From positions 1 to 47,780 of the IMG/VR virus record IMGVR_UViG_3300037313_000674: a DNA stretch of 47,780 bases. One strand, written 5' to 3'. The notes beneath the pieces were generated by a model. The model did no database searches and was not told where the DNA came from. It saw nothing but the letters and a program-made list of their open reading frames with translations. Shown piece after piece: positions 1 through 47,780 of this stretch (position 1 is its first letter; every line of letters begins with the position of its first letter). The stretch comes from a virus. Position numbers and translations under genes: made by a program.

Positions 1-127
1 TGGGGCCGACCTGCGCGGGGCCAACCTGTACGGGGCCAACCTGCGCGGGGCCAACCTGCGCGGGGCCGACCTGCGCGGGGCCAACCTGTACGGGGCCAAC
101 CTGTACGGGGCCGACCTGTACGGGGCC
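1..127. repeat. Terminal direct repeat: 1-127 is identical to 47654-47780, implying a circular contig of about 47,653 bp
   Basis: I compared the two window ends base by base. Both read t + 8 units of the 15-bp array + ggggcc. A 127-bp overlap is typical of a k-mer assembly overlap. Confidence 0.93.
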
Positions 128-301
128 AACCTGCGCGGGGCCAACCTGCGCGGGGCCAACCTGTACGGGGCCAACCTGCGCGGGGCCAACCTGCGCGGGG
201 CCAACCTGTACGGGGCCGACCTGCGCGGGGCCAACCTGCGCGGGGCCGACCTGCGCGGGGCCAACCTGTACGGGGCCGACCTGTACGGGGCCGACCTCAA
301 A
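2..301 (+). repeat. 15-bp tandem array, ggggcc(a/g)acctg(cgc/tac), 19 near-identical units plus 1 degenerate unit
   Basis: Twelve of the 15 positions are invariant across 19 units. The only variation is A/G (Asn/Asp) and CG/TA (Arg/Tyr). The array is in frame with the pentapeptide CDS. Confidence 0.95.
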
Positions 302-676
302 GACGCAAAAAACGCCGATTTCATAATCGCGCAAACCCGCATTCTTTCCGAAGGCGACTTGATCGGCTGGAAAAAGTGCGCTTGCGGCGTCCTCGTAAAG
401 CTGAAGATCCCCGCCGATGCGAAGCGCTCACACGCCTTCGGACGCAAGTGCCGCGCTGAATTTGTCGATGTTCTGGAAATCCTCTCGCCTTCAATCGATG
501 CAGAGGGCGTCAAAACCTGGCAAGCCGCCGACGTGGCTATCAGCTCCCGCGACAACAAAACCGAATACCGCGTCGGGCAGCGGGTAACCCCAGATCGTTT
601 CGATGAAAACTGGCAGGAGGAATGCGCATCCGGAATCCATTTCTTCATCACCCGTATCGAAGCGGAAAATTACTGA
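2..676 (+). CDS. Pentapeptide-repeat protein, 3' part (continues from 47529-47780 across the circular junction; 266 aa in total)
   Basis: Frame 2 is open from the window start to TGA at 674-676. It encodes 19 G-A-[D/N]-L-[R/Y] units followed by a globular C-terminal domain (...[21 protein letters not shown]...[18 protein letters not shown]). That domain resembles one often fused to pentapeptide repeats in phage proteins (DUF5758-like, recalled from memory). Confidence 0.85.
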
Positions 677-807
677 TGCTTTCGCTGATCTCGCTCTTAG
701 GCCGATGGCTATCTATCCTACTCGCCATCGGCCTACTTCTCACCGCATCCACGCAACCCGGCCGGCATAGCATGTTGCCGAGCTTTCTACAGACAGAAGG
801 GAGGTAA
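676..807 (+). CDS. Small hydrophobic protein (43 aa), possibly translationally coupled
   Basis: ATG at 676 overlaps the TGA of the upstream gene (ATGA). The product is [22 protein letters not shown]..., with one predicted TM helix. The ORF-track start at 622 lies inside the upstream gene. Confidence 0.3.
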   Translation: MLSLISLLGRWLSILLAIGLLLTASTQPGRHSMLPSFLQTEGR

Positions 808-880
808 CACGCCGAAAAGCTCTAGCCTATTTTTCATGACCTAAGCCGCGTTTCACACAGCCCTTTTCATCCCCCAAGCA

Positions 881-920
881 AAGCCCTTCGAAGTCCCGCC
901 AGCTTCGAGGGGCTTTTCTA
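881..920. terminator. Bidirectional rho-independent terminator between convergent units
   Basis: A 13-bp stem pairs aagcccttcgaag with cttcgaggggctt (one G-U pair). It is followed by TTTTCTATT on the plus strand and by CTTTGCTT on the minus strand. Confidence 0.6.
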
Positions 921-1191: not shown

Positions 1192-1764
1192 CTACCCCTC
1201 CGGATATACCGACGTAGCCGCCGCCTCCTTCAAGCGCGCCCTAGCCCTGAATTCTGGCTGTTTTGCCCCTATCCGATACACATACCTCGATTGACTTGCC
1301 GCTTGACCGCGATCAGCATGCTTTTCGTCAAACAGCCATGGCCGGTCAGGATCCTCGATCAAAGCGCGCCGTTCGAGCATGCCGAGATCACGGGCCTTCT
1401 GGTAAACCGTGAACTTCAATCCGGCCTTGCCGGTCTCGGGCAGGAGCTTCTGGAGTTGCGCAAACGAATACCATTTGTCCGGATCGGTTCGCGCTACCAG
1501 GCGTTCGAACAAACTATACCCGCCGGCCGCCGGTATCTTCTTCCGCTTCATCGCCTTCCGCTTTTTGGCCAGTTCCAAAAAGTCGAAGCCTCTCCGGTCC
1601 TTTTTCGTCCGCTTGGCTTTCCGGGCCGTGATCTCCGCTCTGAGCTTCGCCACCGCGGGGCGCTTCTTCGTCTTTCGGGCCAACGCCTTTGCTTTCGCCG
1701 CCTCGGTCTGCTTCACCGCCAACAAGGCGTCAGCCCGTCGGCGCATTTCCTCTTCATCGGCCAT
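1192..1764 (-). CDS. Basic protein (190 aa) with a K/R-rich N-terminus and a winged-helix-like C-terminus; candidate iteron-binding initiator
   Basis: ATG at 1764 has GGAGAAAAATAGAA upstream. The longer ORF-track start at 1953 would read through the iteron repeats. The initiator role is inferred only from its position next to the iterons. Confidence 0.7.
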   Translation of the reverse strand: MADEEEMRRRADALLAVKQTEAAKAKALARKTKKRPAVAKLRAEITARKAKRTKKDRRGFDFLELAKKRKAMKRKKIPAAGGYSLFERLVARTDPDKWYSFAQLQKLLPETGKAGLKFTVYQKARDLGMLERRALIEDPDRPWLFDEKHADRGQAASQSRYVYRIGAKQPEFRARARLKEAAATSVYPEG

Positions 1765-1852
1765 TTCTATTTTTCTCCAGTTCCAAAAAGTTCGGTTCAA
1801 CCGCTGCAAACCACGGGGGGGGTACGTAGTACCCACCCCCGGTGGGATTTGC

Positions 1853-2016
1853 GTCCAAGTGGTCCAAGTGGTCCAAGTTTCGGTCCAAGTGGTCCAAGTT
1901 TGGCCGCAAGCTGTTGATATGCATGCATTTTCCTGTAAACGACCGCGGTCCAAGTTTTTGCGGTCATTTTCCCAACTTGGACCACTTGGACCGCCTGCTT
2001 TTCGCTAGGTCCAAGT
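1853..2016. repeat. Iteron array: 9 copies of GTCCAAGT (7 direct, 2 inverted) flanking an AT-rich stretch; putative replication origin
   Basis: Direct copies are at 1853, 1862, 1871, 1883, 1892, 1948 and 2009. Inverted copies are at 1975 and 1984. The AT-rich, palindromic ctgttgatatgcatgcattttcctgtaaac lies at 1911-1940. Confidence 0.65.
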
Positions 2017-4011
2017 TGGGCTGTAAGTCCTTCTATTTGTTGGACCTTTCTTCGAAACACGCAGGCGTTTCTCCTTGACCAGGCTGTCCAGCCATTTGTT
2101 CGCCATCCGCGCCCCAAGAGGCTGCCTCGCCCCCTCGCCGTGAACCGCCACCAGCGCCCTGTTGAACATGTTCTGCGCATCTTGCCGGGTAAAGTTTGTG
2201 CTCTTTCCTTCTGCGGAAGCGTCATCGGCCGCGTCCATGATCGCTCTTGCAAACAGATCGCGATCCGACAGCTCGCCCTCGTCTTCAGGCATGTCGTCCT
2301 CGAATTCCGAAGCCGCCGAGCCGTATTCCAGCACCGCTGTCTTCCACGGGTTGCCCTCCGCATCGGTGCCGGCCTCCGTTGGCACGAGTTCGTATTCCGC
2401 GAGCAGGTCGATCTGCTCCAGGTCGCGTTGCCATTCGGTTTTGAGCATGCCCTTGCCGCGTTCCGTCGTTTCCACCTTGATCACGGTGTCGACGCCGCCC
2501 AGGAGCTTCTGGCTGCCCATCATGCCCTTGGTCGGGTCTTTGCCCGAGTGGTGGACAACGATGGCCGCGGCGCCCGTCTCCGCCCGGATAAGATCGACGT
2601 TGGCGACGAAGGCCATCATTGGCTCGCTGCTGTTCTCGTCGCCGACGAAGGCGCGCGACAGCGTGTCGATGACGATCACCGACAGGTTGGGAATCCTCTT
2701 GGCGATCTTGACGATCTCTTTGGCGTCCTCGTGGTTGCTGACGAGATCGAGCGTGGCGGGCATGAGATAGAATGGCGTGTCTTCCGGAACGCCGTACTTG
2801 GCGAACGCGGCCTCACGGCGAGCATGGATGCCGAGCCCGCCTTCACCTGCCACATAGAGCACTGCGCCTTTCGTCGTTTCGTATTTGCCGGCCCACGGGA
2901 TGCCGGCGGCGATGCATGTGCACATATCGACGATATTGAACGTCTTGGCCGTCTTGGGGGCGCCGTACGCCACGGCAAAGCCGTTCTGGTTGATCACCCC
3001 CTTGACCAGCGGCCGGATGACCGTGCTGCGCAAAAGCTCGCGCGAGGCCGTCGGGCCGATGACCTTGAACTTCGCGCGGCGGCCTTTGTCGTCTGCCGCC
3101 TTCTTCACCTCCGCCGGCACCGCCCCCACGCGAGCGATCTCTTCGGCCGTCGGCGCTTCCTGAGAGTTATCCCCGATATCCACAGGCTCGAAATCCGCGT
3201 GCGGTGTCTTTCCGCCCCATGTCCCGCTCGCATACGCGAACGCATTGGCGACCTTTATGGCCAGGTCTTCGGCCGGCCATGGCGGCTCGCACATGTCGGC
3301 CCATGGCCCGAGCACTTCGAGCGCCATGCCCTCGCTCAGCCCGAAGTCGCGCATCCGTGCGGCTGTCTTGTAGGTGAGTTCGTCGCCGCCTTCGCCTTCG
3401 ATGGCGACCGGCGCCATGTTCAGCCACCGGATTGCCTTCTCGATATTGGCCGGCAGGTCAAGCTCGATCACAGGCGCGTCGGTCTTGGCCTGATGCCGTG
3501 GCCGCTTTCCAAGGATCTCCAAAAACTCGGACGGCATCTCGGCGATGCCGCCGTTCGCAAGAACGGAATATTCTCCGTTCGGAAGCACGCTGCCGGCGCC
3601 GAGCACATACCCGTTCTCGCCCCTGATATCGATGCCGGGGAAGCCGTCGATGCTGTTGGCGCGGTTGGCGATCTCCCGATCGGTCCTGAGCAGAAGATGC
3701 CTGCCGCCTGACGGCGTGGCCGTGAGGAAGGAATCGGGCAGCACGTCGAGCATCAGGTCGGCCAGGCTGTCGAGACCTGGTTTCCCGTCCTTCACGTCCG
3801 CGTCGACCGCAACTATGCCCTTGCCGGTGGCGATGCCGATATTGTGCGTTCCCTCTCGCCACCAGGTGCGTACCTGCTTTTCGTCCGTGGTGGCGAGGTT
3901 CGGCCAGTCGTCCACGGCCGGCTTCTTCGTCCCTTCGACCACCGGGAACACCCGGATGCCCATGCGCGCATAGTGGAGCGCGAAATCGAGTTTCGTTCTT
4001 GGTTGAGACAT
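2005..4011 (-). CDS. Bifunctional primase-polymerase (Prim-Pol) fused to a RecA-like AAA_25/RepA-type helicase domain
   Basis: The N-terminus carries GIRVFPV..GTKKP..VAVDADV..GGRHLLL..IDIRGENGYVL (Prim-Pol motifs). The C-terminus carries YGAPKTAKT (Walker A-like) and VIVIDTLS (Walker B). Confidence 0.88.
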   Translation of the reverse strand: MSQPRTKLDFALHYARMGIRVFPVVEGTKKPAVDDWPNLATTDEKQVRTWWREGTHNIGIATGKGIVAVDADVKDGKPGLDSLADLMLDVLPDSFLTATPSGGRHLLLRTDREIANRANSIDGFPGIDIRGENGYVLGAGSVLPNGEYSVLANGGIAEMPSEFLEILGKRPRHQAKTDAPVIELDLPANIEKAIRWLNMAPVAIEGEGGDELTYKTAARMRDFGLSEGMALEVLGPWADMCEPPWPAEDLAIKVANAFAYASGTWGGKTPHADFEPVDIGDNSQEAPTAEEIARVGAVPAEVKKAADDKGRRAKFKVIGPTASRELLRSTVIRPLVKGVINQNGFAVAYGAPKTAKTFNIVDMCTCIAAGIPWAGKYETTKGAVLYVAGEGGLGIHARREAAFAKYGVPEDTPFYLMPATLDLVSNHEDAKEIVKIAKRIPNLSVIVIDTLSRAFVGDENSSEPMMAFVANVDLIRAETGAAAIVVHHSGKDPTKGMMGSQKLLGGVDTVIKVETTERGKGMLKTEWQRDLEQIDLLAEYELVPTEAGTDAEGNPWKTAVLEYGSAASEFEDDMPEDEGELSDRDLFARAIMDAADDASAEGKSTNFTRQDAQNMFNRALVAVHGEGARQPLGARMANKWLDSLVKEKRLRVSKKGPTNRRTYSPTWT

Positions 4012-4918: not shown

Positions 4919-5356
4919 TCACTTCGTATTTTGCTCCACCCAAGACACGACGGCGCCTTCAAATCTGAACCATTCGAGGGCATGACGATACTCGGCGAAA
5001 CGTTGGTGCAATTCGCGTTCAAGCACATGCCCGTCGCCCTCGGTCAGCACCGTCAATAGCTCTAGCGGGTACGGATTCGCGGCTCTAAGCGAGTTTAAAC
5101 GCTTTTGAACATCGCCGGCCTTGCCAATTTTCACATAGTCGCCGCAACGGATTACATACACGTCGCATGGCTCGCGGCCAGGGGTATCGAAGTTTTCCTC
5201 AAACGCATTCGCATCTTCGGGACGGACGCGGACCATGGTCTTACCGATTGTGATTGCCGGCAATTCGCCGGTGCGGATCAAGGTCAGCACCATAGTCGCC
5301 GAACAATTCCACCTATCCGCCAACTGCGCCGGCGACAGTAAAGACGCCATTTTCAA
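4919..5356 (-). CDS. Excisionase-like HTH (HTH_17/MerR-type) fused to a T5orf172/MUG113 (GIY-YIG superfamily) domain
   Basis: The N-terminus reads LSPAQLADRWNCSATMVLTLIRTGELPAITIGKTMVRVR. The C-terminus reads VYVIRCGDYVKIGKAGDVQKRLNSLRAANPYPLELL...ERELHQRFAEYRHALEWFRF. There is an ATGA overlap with the int stop. Confidence 0.8.
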   Translation of the reverse strand: MKMASLLSPAQLADRWNCSATMVLTLIRTGELPAITIGKTMVRVRPEDANAFEENFDTPGREPCDVYVIRCGDYVKIGKAGDVQKRLNSLRAANPYPLELLTVLTEGDGHVLERELHQRFAEYRHALEWFRFEGAVVSWVEQNTK

Positions 5357-6363
5357 ATCTCCAAACTATCCGCCAAGTCCCGCAAATGGCCGGGGCTGTA
5401 GCGGGCGTAAACTTTCTCTGTGATTCTGCTGTCGGAATGCCCCAGGAACTGCGCGATCCTGGTCATCGTGTGGCCGTCTTCGGCCATCCACACCGCCGCG
5501 CTGTGGCGTAGCACGTGCGGTGTCACGCCTTCGAGCTTCGCCGACTTCGCCGCCGCCCGGATGCCCGTCTTGATCGATGCCACCTGCGCGCCGGCCCATT
5601 CGATCACATAGGGCGACAGCGCGGCCTGCTTGGCGAGTAGCAGCGCATCGCGCAGGCTGTTGTTCATCGGGACTGTCGCGCGGCGCTTGCGCTGCGTGAT
5701 GTCCTCCACATTGGTCAGCGAGATCGTGTTGCGGTCGAAGTCGACGCGCAGCCACGTCAGCTCGAGCGCGGCCGAGACACGGGCGCCGGTTCCGATCATC
5801 AGCCGGATCGCCAGCGCGATATGCGGCACCTTGGCGTGCTCTATCAGCTTGCGCACTTCGTCGCGCGTCAGGTAGCGGTCCTTCGGCGCCGGCTTCGATG
5901 GCCGCTCGATCTTCGGCGCATCGGTGATCAGCTTCGCGTCGCGTGCCCATACCAATATCGATCGGAGATGGCCGAGTTCGGTATGCACGGTTCCGACGCT
6001 CTTGCCGGTGCCGTACCGCTCGACGGCGTAGAGCCGGCAAAGGTCGGTCGTGATCTGGCCGGGATCGAGCTTGCCGAACGTTGGCGCGAGTGCCTTCCAT
6101 GTGTGGGCCATGGTTTGGAGTACGACCTTGCCGGCCTTGTCCTTCTGGTAGCCAGCCCACAGGTCTGCGACAGTCCGGCCTACCGGCCGCGTGAGTTCCG
6201 CGTATCGAGCCGCGGCAAGCGCTTTCGCTTCTCGGGCGTCGGAAGTTCCAAGACGGTAGCGCCGCCGTGTAGATCGTCCGTCGGGCTGCTCTTCGTCCCA
6301 GGCAACGCAGAATTCTCCGTTGAGCCTTGTGAGCCGCCATTCGAGTTCGTCGGATTTTTGCAT
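5353..6363 (-). CDS. int: Tyrosine integrase (phage integrase family)
   Basis: The sequence contains TGARVSAALELTW, HVLRHSAAVWMAEDG and LGHSDSRITEKVYARY (R...HxxR...Y catalytic pattern). The N-terminus is arm-binding-like. The gene is adjacent to the tRNA-fragment attP. Confidence 0.92.
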   Translation of the reverse strand: MQKSDELEWRLTRLNGEFCVAWDEEQPDGRSTRRRYRLGTSDAREAKALAAARYAELTRPVGRTVADLWAGYQKDKAGKVVLQTMAHTWKALAPTFGKLDPGQITTDLCRLYAVERYGTGKSVGTVHTELGHLRSILVWARDAKLITDAPKIERPSKPAPKDRYLTRDEVRKLIEHAKVPHIALAIRLMIGTGARVSAALELTWLRVDFDRNTISLTNVEDITQRKRRATVPMNNSLRDALLLAKQAALSPYVIEWAGAQVASIKTGIRAAAKSAKLEGVTPHVLRHSAAVWMAEDGHTMTRIAQFLGHSDSRITEKVYARYSPGHLRDLADSLEI

Positions 6364-17953: not shown

Positions 17954-18946
17954 TTAATCGTCCAGCCGCTCGGCCAAACATGCCGCTGAGTGATGGCCGT
18001 ACACGCGCTCGACAGTCTGTATCGTGTCGCCGAGCAGTTTCGCCACATCGAACACTGATTTTCCCTCTTGGAGTAGGTGGGAAGCCCTGGTGTGCCGCAT
18101 GCAATGCGGATTGGCGCGATCAGCCATCCCAAGCCCTTCAAGAAGCTCACGATATGGGGCATAGAAATCGGCCCGCTGAAACAGCCGTTCGTTCGGGCTC
18201 GACAGCCACAGCGCATGCAATGGCGCTTCCATCTTCTTCAGGATAGGCACGATCGGCTGCCGCTTCTTGGTCGTGATCTTGCCGGGCAGTTGCAGGGTGA
18301 TTCGGCGCGTCTCCCAATTGACCTGCGACCGGCGCAGGTTCTCGATTGATGCGCGGCGCGCGCCCGTGTAATAGAGCAGCTTCACGAAATGCTCCAGTTC
18401 CCCGCCGCCCTGCGACGCCGCCCAAAAGATCCTGGCAAGCTCTTCCCGGCTGTAATAGGACGCTTCGTCGTCATAGCCGATCAGCTTCTCGTGCGGGTAT
18501 TCGATCGATGGCATGGCCAGAATGCGCTTCCAGCGCAGCGCATGCTTCGCTGCCGCGTGCAGCACGGCCAGTTCCCGTTTGATCGTGGCATCGCTGCCGG
18601 TCTTGTCTTTGCGCTTCGCGCCGCCACCGATCTTCCCGGAGCGTCGAACTTCTGCGTATTCTCTTGAATGAACTATATCGATATCTTCAACAGCGCGGCT
18701 GCCGAAAAACGCCTTCAGGTGCTTGACGATATTGTCCCTGCGCTCGGGGTCGGCAACGCGATGCTCAAGACAATACTGGTCGAGCATGTCGCTCACAGCA
18801 AGTCTTCGAGGCCCTTTTCGTCGATCGACGGTCGGCTCAAAAGTCGTGCTCGAAGGGACCGGGCGGCTTCGAGTCTTGCCGCTATCGTCTTTCCAGTAGA
18901 GCCGGAACGTGCCTTCTTCGGTTTGGCGGATTTCCTGGCCACGCAT
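17954..18946 (-). CDS. Second tyrosine recombinase (phage integrase family)
   Basis: The sequence contains LLYYTGARRASI, HCMRHTRASHLLQEG and LGDTIQTVERVYGHH. It lies immediately downstream of the XRE gene. Confidence 0.88.
   Translation of the reverse strand: MRGQEIRQTEEGTFRLYWKDDSGKTRSRPVPSSTTFEPTVDRRKGPRRLAVSDMLDQYCLEHRVADPERRDNIVKHLKAFFGSRAVEDIDIVHSREYAEVRRSGKIGGGAKRKDKTGSDATIKRELAVLHAAAKHALRWKRILAMPSIEYPHEKLIGYDDEASYYSREELARIFWAASQGGGELEHFVKLLYYTGARRASIENLRRSQVNWETRRITLQLPGKITTKKRQPIVPILKKMEAPLHALWLSSPNERLFQRADFYAPYRELLEGLGMADRANPHCMRHTRASHLLQEGKSVFDVAKLLGDTIQTVERVYGHHSAACLAERLDD
18662..18692. promoter_or_regulatory. Intragenic element copy (13/14) inside recombinase 2
   Basis: The sequence is TCTTGAA-tgaactatatcgatatc-TTCAACA. 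It sits in an AT-rich island within otherwise GC-rich coding sequence. Confidence 0.4.
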
Positions 18947-44100: not shown

Positions 44101-44580
44101 TCACCCCTCATAGCCGGTCAGTTCGGCCAATCTCTTCTGACCCCGGTGGACGCGGCTCTTGATCGTGCCGACCGGAACGGCCTGCAGCGCGGCCATTTCT
44201 TCATATTCATGCCCGAGCCCGTAAAGCACGAGCGTGTCGCGCATGGGCGCCGGCAAGTCGTTCAGCCGGACGAAGACCTGCTTGGCTGCGAGCGCGGCTT
44301 CCGGGTCGTCTTTCGCCGGCAGCATTTCGATCACGAGATCGTCCGGCTCGGCCATCAGGTGGCGCTTGCGCGTCGTCTGCGTGATGAATTCGTTTCGGCA
44401 GATCGTCGTCAGCCAACCGGCCATGTTCGACCCCGTCTGAAACTGATGCTGGCGCTCAAGGGCCCTGGCGAGCACGTCCTGCATGAGGTCGTCGGCGCGG
44501 TCGGCGTTCCGGGTCAGCCGGAGCGCGTAGCTGCGGAGTTTCTTAGCGTGATGCAGCAGTTCGTCCGCGAAATCGGCCAC
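44101..44580 (-). CDS. ECF-type sigma-70 family RNA polymerase sigma factor (159 aa)
   Basis: Region 2 reads DLMQDVLARALERQHQFQTGSNMAGWLTTICRNEFI. Region 4 reads LPAPMRDTLVLYGLGHEYEEMAALQAVPVGTIKSRVHRGQKRLAEL. The GTG start follows AAGGGGA. Confidence 0.88.
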   Translation of the reverse strand: MADFADELLHHAKKLRSYALRLTRNADRADDLMQDVLARALERQHQFQTGSNMAGWLTTICRNEFITQTTRKRHLMAEPDDLVIEMLPAKDDPEAALAAKQVFVRLNDLPAPMRDTLVLYGLGHEYEEMAALQAVPVGTIKSRVHRGQKRLAELTGYEG

Positions 44581-44950: not shown

Positions 44951-45259
44951 TTACGCTGCGTGCGCAGCAAGGTTCTGCCGAAGCAGGTAGCCTTCGAGCG
45001 CCCAAATCTTGTTGCGTGCATTCTCCCGTGCGATCTTGCGGCCGATGTCGGCGTCGAAATTCTCGAGGCTTGCCGCGGCGCTCTCGCCGGTCACGATATA
45101 GCCGTTGCGCAAAGTGAGCGCGCAGACCGTCATCGTCGTTCCGGGGAACACATGGTACTGCTCGGACTTGATCGCCTGGTCGATCAGGGTCGGCGTGAGG
45201 CGGGGCGCGTTGAGCCCTTTGGCCTGGATTTCGTTTTCGATCTGCTCTTCGTCTTTCAT
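44951..45259 (-). CDS. Gp49-like protein (Phage_gp49_66 family)
   Basis: The sequence is MKDEEQIENEIQAKGLNAPRLTPTLIDQAIKSEQYHVFPGTTMTVCALTLRNGYIVTGESAAASLENFDADIGRKIARENARNKIWALEGYLL. Confidence 0.75.
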   Translation of the reverse strand: MKDEEQIENEIQAKGLNAPRLTPTLIDQAIKSEQYHVFPGTTMTVCALTLRNGYIVTGESAAASLENFDADIGRKIARENARNKIWALEGYLLRQNLAAHAA

Positions 45260-45310
45260 CGGTCTTGCTTTCTGTCTCGTTGAACGTTTTGTTGATCGAA
45301 TGTCGATCAA

Positions 45311-47497: not shown

Positions 47498-47528
47498 GGC
47501 TAAAGCTAACGATCGACTGGAGAAAACA

Positions 47529-47780
47529 ATGATCGACCACGAAATCCGGCACAACGAAACCGACGCGATCCTGTTCACCGCGAAAATCGAGTGCAAAACG
47601 ACAGTTTCGACGGGCGTGAAACTCGGCATGGCTGTTCTCGCCGCGCTCGCCGCTGGGGCCGACCTGCGCGGGGCCAACCTGTACGGGGCCAACCTGCGCG
47701 GGGCCAACCTGCGCGGGGCCGACCTGCGCGGGGCCAACCTGTACGGGGCCAACCTGTACGGGGCCGACCTGTACGGGGCC
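47529..47780 (+). CDS. Pentapeptide-repeat protein, 5' part (runs off the window end and continues at 128-676)
   Basis: GGAGAA lies 6 nt upstream of the ATG. The product begins [52 protein letters not shown].... Its frame matches frame 2 at the window start after removing the 127-bp overlap. Confidence 0.85.
47654..47780. repeat. Second copy of the 127-bp terminal overlap
   Basis: It is identical to 1-127. Confidence 0.93.

Follow-up and report, generated by a model that had tools for sequence, protein, structure and literature searches.

The subject of this report is a gene for a pentapeptide-repeat protein (PRP) with a nearly invariant 15-bp tandem array in the IMG/VR virus record IMGVR_UViG_3300037313_000674, the whole 47,780-nucleotide (nt) stretch of which is referred to below as the window. 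The window represents the genome of a temperate phage with 60% G+C, in which PHROG matches identify a primase/helicase, a DNA polymerase, a major head protein, a portal, a large terminase and a tyrosine integrase. The two ends of the window are identical over 127 bp, which makes the genome a circle of 47,653 bp that the contig interrupts within the array. Units 1-8.4 are thus written twice, at 2..127 and again at 47655..47780, and the second copy adds no repeats. Translation across the junction joins 47529..47780 to 128..676 in one open reading frame (ORF) of 266 amino acids (aa), with the stop codon at 674..676 (Table 1). A look-up of the exact 266-aa protein in the protein collection gave no entry, which is explained by the source contig splitting the gene between its ends, where linear gene callers cannot follow it. 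The gene upstream forms a singleton cluster in that collection, a megablast search with 24 kb of the window returned no match among 50,697 phage records, and scans for the exact 32-nt 3' flank in metagenome and viral contigs matched nothing. The analysis shows that this is a complete natural phage gene belonging to a large family in which pentapeptide repeats are joined to the domain DUF5758.

The array lies on the + strand at 2..286 and consists of 19 perfect head-to-tail units that read GGGGCC(A/G)ACCTG(CGC/TAC), each encoding GA(N/D)L(R/Y); Tandem Repeats Finder assigned it a score of 431, with 19.7 copies of period 15. Twelve of the 15 unit positions are invariant. Position 7 alternates between AAC and GAC (Asn/Asp), positions 13 and 14 always co-vary between CGC and TAC (Arg/Tyr), and all three variable positions are non-synonymous. 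A preliminary description of this DNA, made from the sequence alone, had reported the same number of units, the same invariant positions and the same two alternatives, all of which are correct. It had also reported a perfect fit to the A(D/N)LXX consensus, and this is borne out, with Ala at i-2, Asn or Asp at i-1 and Leu at i in 20 contiguous units and a PF00805 score for the protein of 143.7 bits against a cut-off of 20.2. The twentieth unit is degenerate and closes the helix, and the terminal '…DLKDAKNAD' of the query is also found in Agrobacterium homologues. The linkage of the CGC/TAC change is accounted for by units being copied whole, and the one-step intermediates His (CAC) and Cys (TGC) are present at the Arg/Tyr position in relatives. 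GGG is a minor codon, making up 12% of Gly codons genome-wide, yet it is the Gly codon in all 19 units, which argues that one ancestral unit was amplified and not that codon use was optimised. The GGGG at the start of each unit also creates 20 G4 tracts on the coding strand, 11 nt apart (47655-47780 / 2-286), that could in principle form long-loop G-quadruplexes; these tracts are not family-wide, since relatives mostly encode that Gly by GGC or GGT.

The full-chain structure was examined as an AlphaFold2 model with a mean predicted local distance difference test (pLDDT) score of 90. The model, a check that the preliminary description had proposed, comprises a cap, a five-coil beta-helix, a low-confidence linker and a beta-rich C-terminal domain. 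The array is predicted to form a rigid rod, a right-handed quadrilateral beta-helix of five coils with four units per coil. A beta bridge occurs each 5 residues over aa 42-145, and pLDDT declines from 97 to about 82 across the array. Foldseek matched the rod to Np275/276 (E 7e-9), HetL, the synthetic protein beta1 and other PRP structures. The N-terminal segment, which had been described as hydrophobic, is predicted to be a conserved cap made of a beta-hairpin and an amphipathic helix, with pLDDT of 95-97. An N-terminal membrane anchor was considered and rejected, since the model shows this confident cap and neither a signal peptide nor a membrane segment, and the protein is predicted to be soluble. 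The linker between the beta-helix and the C-terminal domain has a low pLDDT and is probably flexible, and the predicted template modelling score is 0.55 for the whole chain versus 0.78 for the C-terminal domain alone.

Among PDB sequences the closest to the query are the synthetic consensus solenoids beta1/6beta1 (4yc5, 4yfo, 5dzb; E 3e-38 to 1e-34), with HetL and Np275/276 ranking behind them, so that a designed look is an apt description of the array. Both the solenoids and the query have a near-perfect A(D/N)LXX consensus and a regular beta-helix. However, beta1/6beta1 are man-made, whereas the query is natural, has natural homologues and carries a distinct N-terminal cap and DUF5758. Among solved natural PRPs, Np275/Np276, HetL, Rfr23/Rfr32, MfpA, QnrB1 and AlbG share the right-handed quadrilateral beta-helix with four units per coil but are degenerate at the DNA and protein levels, in contrast to the near-invariant array of the query.

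The C-terminal part of the protein had been left unplaced as a GIHFF-type domain of unknown function; it is a catalogued Pfam family, DUF5758 (PF19062), itself of unknown function. The conserved motifs GWKK, KLxIP, AxRS..GRKCRAE and ECxxGIHFF…EAE are invariant or nearly so in alignments A1-A3, and the invariant residues include W165, K166, R184, R190, K191, C192, R193, Y231, C250, H255 and E262. This basic cluster together with the Cys/Cys/His set suggests a nucleic-acid, phosphate, metal or catalytic site. A model of the domain has a pLDDT of 86.8, and its profile found no match among PDB sequences (best E 0.48). The query differs from most of its PRP-DUF5758 relatives by a 13-residue insertion in the region of aa 202-222, a similar one being found in the homologue P0040, and it has Arg in place of the near-invariant His of an S-H-D motif that the relatives keep. 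A DUF5758 profile search returned 6,046 cluster representatives at 50% identity, and nearly all of the 150 listed have the domain at the C-terminus. Pentapeptide repeats were found in 117 of the 149 representatives examined, and a few have other N-terminal modules; bacterial or metagenomic proteins with leucine-rich-repeat-like (P0158, for example) or other N-termini include P0158, P0136 and P0183. In BFVD, giant viruses (Klosneuvirinae, mimivirus, pithovirus) also carry the DUF5758 fold, joined to MORN, HEAT, pentapeptide or RING modules, and several paralogues are present in Acidovorax phage ACP17. DUF5758 looks like a mobile C-terminal module that is joined to varied repeat scaffolds.

A search for homologues of the whole protein gave 7,825 matches, and the best 120, those listed, share the PRP-DUF5758 architecture, the top ones being 61-73% identical to the query. 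The family is represented in Rhizobium, Ralstonia, Thiohalocapsa and Synechococcus phages, in many prophages and in 152 Mycobacterium phage records. The protein of Rhizobium phage RHph_TM3_3_14B (QIG68681.1, 64% identity to the query), gp58 of mycobacteriophage Cjw1 and the Agrobacterium prophage copies have the same architecture and the motifs GWKK / RKCRAE / ECxxGIHFF. The arrays of homologues have 10-33 units, with 3-13 distinct units in those inspected, and several (P0021, P0018 and P0037, for example) match or exceed the query in regularity. The closest relatives share its regularity, with almost no synonymous differences between units, whereas mycobacteriophage members are degenerate and apparently constant in length. 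More than 100 natural homologues are equally regular at the protein level, and about 60 IMG/VR loci at the DNA level. The gene is a typical member of a known, uncharacterised family and is neither designed nor unique. The contrast drawn with the degenerate Qnr and MfpA proteins stands outside this subfamily but not within it, where regularity is common.

At the IMG/VR loci 9-13 of the 15 unit positions are typically invariant, and distinct DNA units almost always correspond to distinct peptide units. Within 63 arrays, more than one codon was used for only 29 of 642 residue types. In the exposed codons, variation at positions 1-2 was seen in 63-95% of arrays (21% for position 2 of the Asn/Asp codon), while in the buried Ala and Leu codons the four-fold sites varied in only 8-11% of arrays. 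Neutral drift would be expected to show at synonymous sites no less often, and their rare variation therefore indicates strong homogenisation at the DNA level together with selection for surface heterogeneity. Since the mycobacteriophage arrays are degenerate, regularity is not needed for the function of the family and instead reflects evolutionary dynamics.

Units are also gained, lost and rearranged between near-identical relatives, at a pace well above that of change elsewhere in the gene. The finished chromosome of Agrobacterium pusense (CP050898.1) contains two prophage copies with 0 differences in 459 nt of flanking sequence whose arrays differ, reading ABCCCCCDBCCDEBDBDF (18 units) in one and BCDBCCDBCCDEBDBDF (17 units) in the other. 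Two Agrobacterium strains with 3 flank differences in 459 nt have 21 units, mostly GANLH, and 13 SADLR/SANLY units, respectively. In eleven additional pairs of near-identical homologues the number or the order of the units is not the same, and in the metagenome-derived pairs among them assembly error is a possible cause of the differences; a single-block insertion or deletion as the only difference was rejected in all 11 pairs tested. A comparable case is known for phages L and ST64T, which are >99.9% identical and differ by a 15-bp, one-repeat deletion in a PRP gene of the early-left operon (PMC8022706). This gene, orf232, shares with the present one a repeat difference of 15 bp in a phage PRP, but it does not encode a DUF5758 protein, and no Salmonella phage matched the C-terminal domain. 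In the literature on phage pentapeptide proteins the phage L deletion was the only pertinent item found, the others being unrelated. Length variability in 15-bp steps, which had been suggested for the array, therefore holds in the family; homologues with the same regularity and a constant length had been named as a finding that would speak against it, and near-identical relatives do differ in length. A contingency locus in the strict on/off sense is not what is seen, because the 15-bp units lie inside the ORF and a change in their number keeps the frame.

One unit type deserves separate mention. In an Agrobacterium prophage array (L088, 3001-3774), a His-type unit (…AACCTTCAC) accounts for 14 of 21 units; compared with the Tyr-type unit (…AACCTCTAC), it has one dinucleotide reversed, CT→TC. 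The His-type unit is missing from a sister prophage (L089, 3001-3654) with flanks that are 99.3% identical, and it looks like a new variant that swept through the array.

We infer that the regularity of the query array arose by concerted evolution of a coding minisatellite, a process shown in its relatives. Whole 15-bp units would be duplicated, deleted and recombined by slippage or unequal exchange, and their turnover would be fast enough to wipe out synonymous differences and to fix the minor codon GGG. The few unit types retained would differ at exposed residues only, namely at i-1 (Asn/Asp), at i+1 (Arg/Tyr) and, in relatives, at i+2. No fixed unit number would be required, since the linker could absorb the 90° rotation that each added unit brings. 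The PRDM9 zinc-finger array and the staphylococcal Ser-Asp (SD) repeats (PMC3324548) resemble the query in being coding units homogenised at the DNA level with rapid change of number and order. In PRDM9, the unit differences are reported to be concentrated at ligand-facing residues (PMC3890296). Both systems differ from the query in fold, in unit size, which is 15 bp here, and in host, the query being a phage protein.

The genomic position of the gene provides the only positive functional clue. In the six prophages examined that have a repressor-like upstream gene, and in RHph_TM3_3_14B, the PRP gene is found between a CI-like repressor and the integrase, on the repressor's strand and two or three small genes past the repressor. 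In Cjw1 the gene (gp58) comes third in an operon adjoining the integrase. Immunity-region or early-left accessory genes occupy the same position in lambdoid phages (lambda, P22). This context weakly suggests an accessory role for the PRP-DUF5758 protein in conflict between phage and host or between phages, with expression early or from the immunity region. In such a role, DUF5758 would be the constant binding or effector module and the pentapeptide rod a fast-evolving surface or spacer.

Table 1. Features of the PRP-DUF5758 locus in window coordinates (GC3, G+C content at third codon positions)
Feature	Position	Strand	Evidence or detail
Terminal redundancy	1..127 = 47654..47780	.	Exact 127-bp identity of window ends
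Upstream micro-ORF, 27 aa, single hydrophobic helix	47414..47497	+	GC3 0.75 in frame vs 0.67, 0.56
Shine-Dalgarno-like GGAG	47519..47522	+	6 nt before ATG; read from sequence
5' part of PRP-DUF5758 gene, aa 1-84	47529..47780	+	ATG 47529; resumes at window 128
N-terminal cap, aa 1-41 (predicted)	47529..47651	+	Strands 2-8, 14-20, helix 28-41; pLDDT 95-97 (AlphaFold2)
19 perfect units, aa 43-137	2..286	+	Pfam PF00805 E 1e-42; AlphaFold2; Foldseek
Degenerate 20th unit GGGGCCGACCTCAAA (GADLK)	287..301	+	Closes helix
Short helix and low-confidence linker, aa 143-157 (predicted)	302..346	+	Helix 147-153; pLDDT <50 at 148-155
DUF5758 (PF19062), aa 158-263, beta-rich	347..664	+	81.5 bits vs cut-off 26.9 (Pfam)
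Downstream micro-ORF, 43 aa, hydrophobic, gene status uncertain	676..807	+	GC3 0.64 in frame vs 0.56, 0.49
Terminator-like hairpin followed by UUUUCU	880..919	+	RNA fold -24.9 kcal/mol, z = -5.5; 0/200 shuffles as stable

Taken as a whole, the account of a natural gene wrapped around the contig ends, with a rod encoded by a coding minisatellite, a constant DUF5758 and an accessory role in conflict, is the best explanation of the data, and we consider it reasonably probable. Several observations weigh against it. The window PRP gene is outside any lambdoid repressor-integrase block and comes second to last among the ORFs of a + strand block of unknown genes. The searches turned up no close relative of this phage, so that turnover is documented in relatives and not in this lineage. 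Arrays from short-read metagenomes may be mis-ordered, and only the Agrobacterium comparisons come from megabase-scale contigs. The Cjw1 array is degenerate, and tblastn matches are equal in length across the cluster E records listed. High regularity was seen in only 18 of the 74 long arrays from the wider DUF5758 family. Concerning function, a Foldseek search of DUF5758 against the PDB gave no fold match (best E 0.43, template modelling score <0.3), no paper mentioning DUF5758 was found in the literature, and neither the whole protein nor the C-terminal domain matched any PADLOC-DB v2 family at E ≤ 0.01.

Small hydrophobic micro-ORFs had been described on both sides of the gene and they do exist, at 27 and 43 aa. 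The upstream one has its ATG within the stop codon of the gene before it (ATGA) and leaves a gap of 31 nt to the start of the PRP gene. By analogy with RexAB or Sie, this membrane micropeptide and the PRP-DUF5758 protein might form a two-gene exclusion or defence cassette expressed by the prophage and acting at the membrane, which we judge unlikely. This phage, RHph_TM3_3_14B (…VAIWLPYVAQHH) and several Agrobacterium prophages each have a small hydrophobic ORF 28-38 nt ahead of the PRP gene, and gp57 of Cjw1 is similar; the window and Rhizobium phage ORFs have a C-terminal W-x-P-[FY]-[LV]-A-[HQ] in common. The position just downstream of the repressor and on its strand in the six prophages would also suit such a cassette. 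However, the upstream micro-ORF is present at only 7 of 49 loci, which led us to reject it as a family-wide partner, since it is confined to Rhizobiales-type relatives and the analogous Cjw1 ORF. The lack of PADLOC matches and the modelled PRP protein, with no signal peptide or membrane segment, also argue against a membrane cassette. The ATG of the downstream micro-ORF overlaps the PRP stop codon (TGATG), and this ORF is not conserved, the Agrobacterium and Rhizobium relatives having unrelated, non-hydrophobic downstream genes.

A short-read de Bruijn assembly could have collapsed or mis-threaded the array, in which case its unit number, order and perfection would be artefacts. The 127-bp circular overlap of the contig falls inside the array, and at least 14 of about 69 related IMG/VR arrays end at a contig end (L004, L005, L010, L011, L018, L020, L024, L025, L049, L053, L056, L062, L065 and L066). 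Nevertheless, the longest exact internal repeat of the array is 59 nt and all of its 77-, 99- and 127-mers are unique, so the assembled path is unambiguous at larger k values. The ORF is intact and in frame, and an isolated Rhizobium phage and Agrobacterium chromosomes on contigs as long as 2.5-3.1 Mb have equally regular arrays of 13-21 units. An artefact of this kind is thus quite unlikely. The arrays do break short-read assemblies, this contig included, and unit counts from metagenomes are therefore not trustworthy without long reads.

DNA-mimic, gyrase-protecting and anti-restriction phenotypes had been among those suggested for testing. On this reading the protein would be a DNA mimic of the Qnr/MfpA type, which would bind and protect or inhibit gyrase, or would block restriction or RecBCD. 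The pentapeptide beta-helix fold is compatible with this suggestion, and Foldseek matched MfpA, QnrB1, AlbG and EfsQnr at E 1e-5 to 3e-3. The early-region position of the family recalls that of ral and gam in lambda. Moreover, phage-encoded gyrase inhibitors are known (review PMC10886550). On the other side, the protein scores far below every curated NCBIfam cut-off, with 57.9 versus 360 bits for MfpA, 36.1 versus 240 for Qnr and 26-39 versus 425-500 for the Qnr subfamilies. Qnr and MfpA, whose topoisomerase targets are known, form anionic dimers, whereas the query array is cationic with a net charge of +5, and the family average of about -0.08 per unit is not strongly anionic. The array is uninterrupted and lacks the loops of Qnr, and in the model the C-terminus is a linker followed by a separate DUF5758 in place of the MfpA/Qnr dimerisation helix. 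The array charge and the NCBIfam scores in particular disfavour the suggestion, and a DNA mimic is improbable.

The preliminary description had further read the array four units per coil and argued for selection on the surface of the beta-helix. If that selection acted on individual faces, one all-Arg face and one Tyr face would form a specific flat binding surface. The counts behind this argument are correct, face 1 being Arg in 5 of 5 coils and face 2 Tyr in 4 of 5, and unit heterogeneity is confined to exposed, non-synonymous positions family-wide, which is consistent with some selection on the surface. Selection on specific faces did not hold up. Shuffling the 19 labels gave p=0.077 for homogeneity at period 4 and p=0.22 for at least one uniform face, and among 109 homologues only 2% reached p<0.05 for period 4, as expected by chance and with no advantage over periods 2, 3, 5, 6 or 8. 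Period-4 patterning was accordingly rejected by permutation both in the query and in the family. Unit number modulo 4 is uniform across homologues, and a constraint of the unit number to whole coils was rejected on that basis. In addition, single-unit changes between copies with identical flanks shift all downstream faces. Face-by-face selection is very improbable, and the pattern of unit differences indicates that the surface is under selection, though not one face at a time. As an explanation, diversification targeted to AAC codons by a diversity-generating retroelement or a comparable copy-choice mechanism is virtually negligible: the switch between Asn and Asp exchanges A and G in an AAC codon and superficially resembles adenine mutagenesis, but the Arg/Tyr switch is not adenine-specific, no second unit copy that could serve as template repeat exists anywhere in the window at ≤2 mismatches, on which ground it was rejected, and no reverse transcriptase was seen among the ORFs scanned, although no systematic search of the window for one was made.

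Several other features of the window were recorded. The terminator-like hairpin downstream of the PRP gene closes the + strand gene block and faces convergent - strand genes. An iteron-like cluster of the 9-mer GGTCCAAGT occupies 1852-2018, immediately beyond the 3' end of the gene for the primase/helicase (2005..4011, - strand), with five tandem direct copies at 1852-1900, one at 1948-1956, inverted copies at approximately 1974-1995 and one at 2009-2018. This cluster is a candidate replication origin or operator array, and it generates an odd 'TWTTWT' repeat in the mechanical ORF 1192..1953. A sigma factor of the extracytoplasmic function (ECF) type (Sigma70_r2 + r4_2) adjoins a protein of the N4 gp49 / Sf6 gene 66 family, at 44101-44580 (-) and 44951-45310 (-), which suggests that part of the transcription programme runs on the phage's own sigma factor. 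Two ORFs resemble tyrosine recombinases; the one at 5353-6363 (-) is the integrase by PHROG, and the one at 17954-18946 (-) was judged by eye from its sequence only. No tRNA genes are present in the window.

On its own, the query is one more member of a catalogued, unstudied family, and the reading of it as a designed protein should be dropped. What is worth following is the combination of DNA-homogenised arrays, found in more than 100 homologues of the subfamily, with unit differences at exposed residues only and with rebuilding of arrays between copies that have identical flanks. These arrays are joined to a conserved domain that has no structural relative in the PDB and that is also found in giant viruses. 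A hypervariable array next to a constant domain is the pattern one expects of an arms-race protein, and the Agrobacterium and Rhizobium prophages and the cluster E mycobacteriophages offer a tractable system. It is a tentative and somewhat doubtful proposal that PRP-DUF5758 proteins form a widespread viral conflict module of phages and giant viruses, with a hypervariable rod and DUF5758 as the constant effector or anchor. In such a module, a DUF5758 with a fold lacking any solved relative would contribute the invariant Cys/Cys/His and basic cluster, and the unit order and exposed residues of the rod would be reshuffled while the flanks diverge by <1%. If this is true, reshuffling of the rod would retune binding or evasion, and the family would be a phage counterpart of PRDM9-type arrays.

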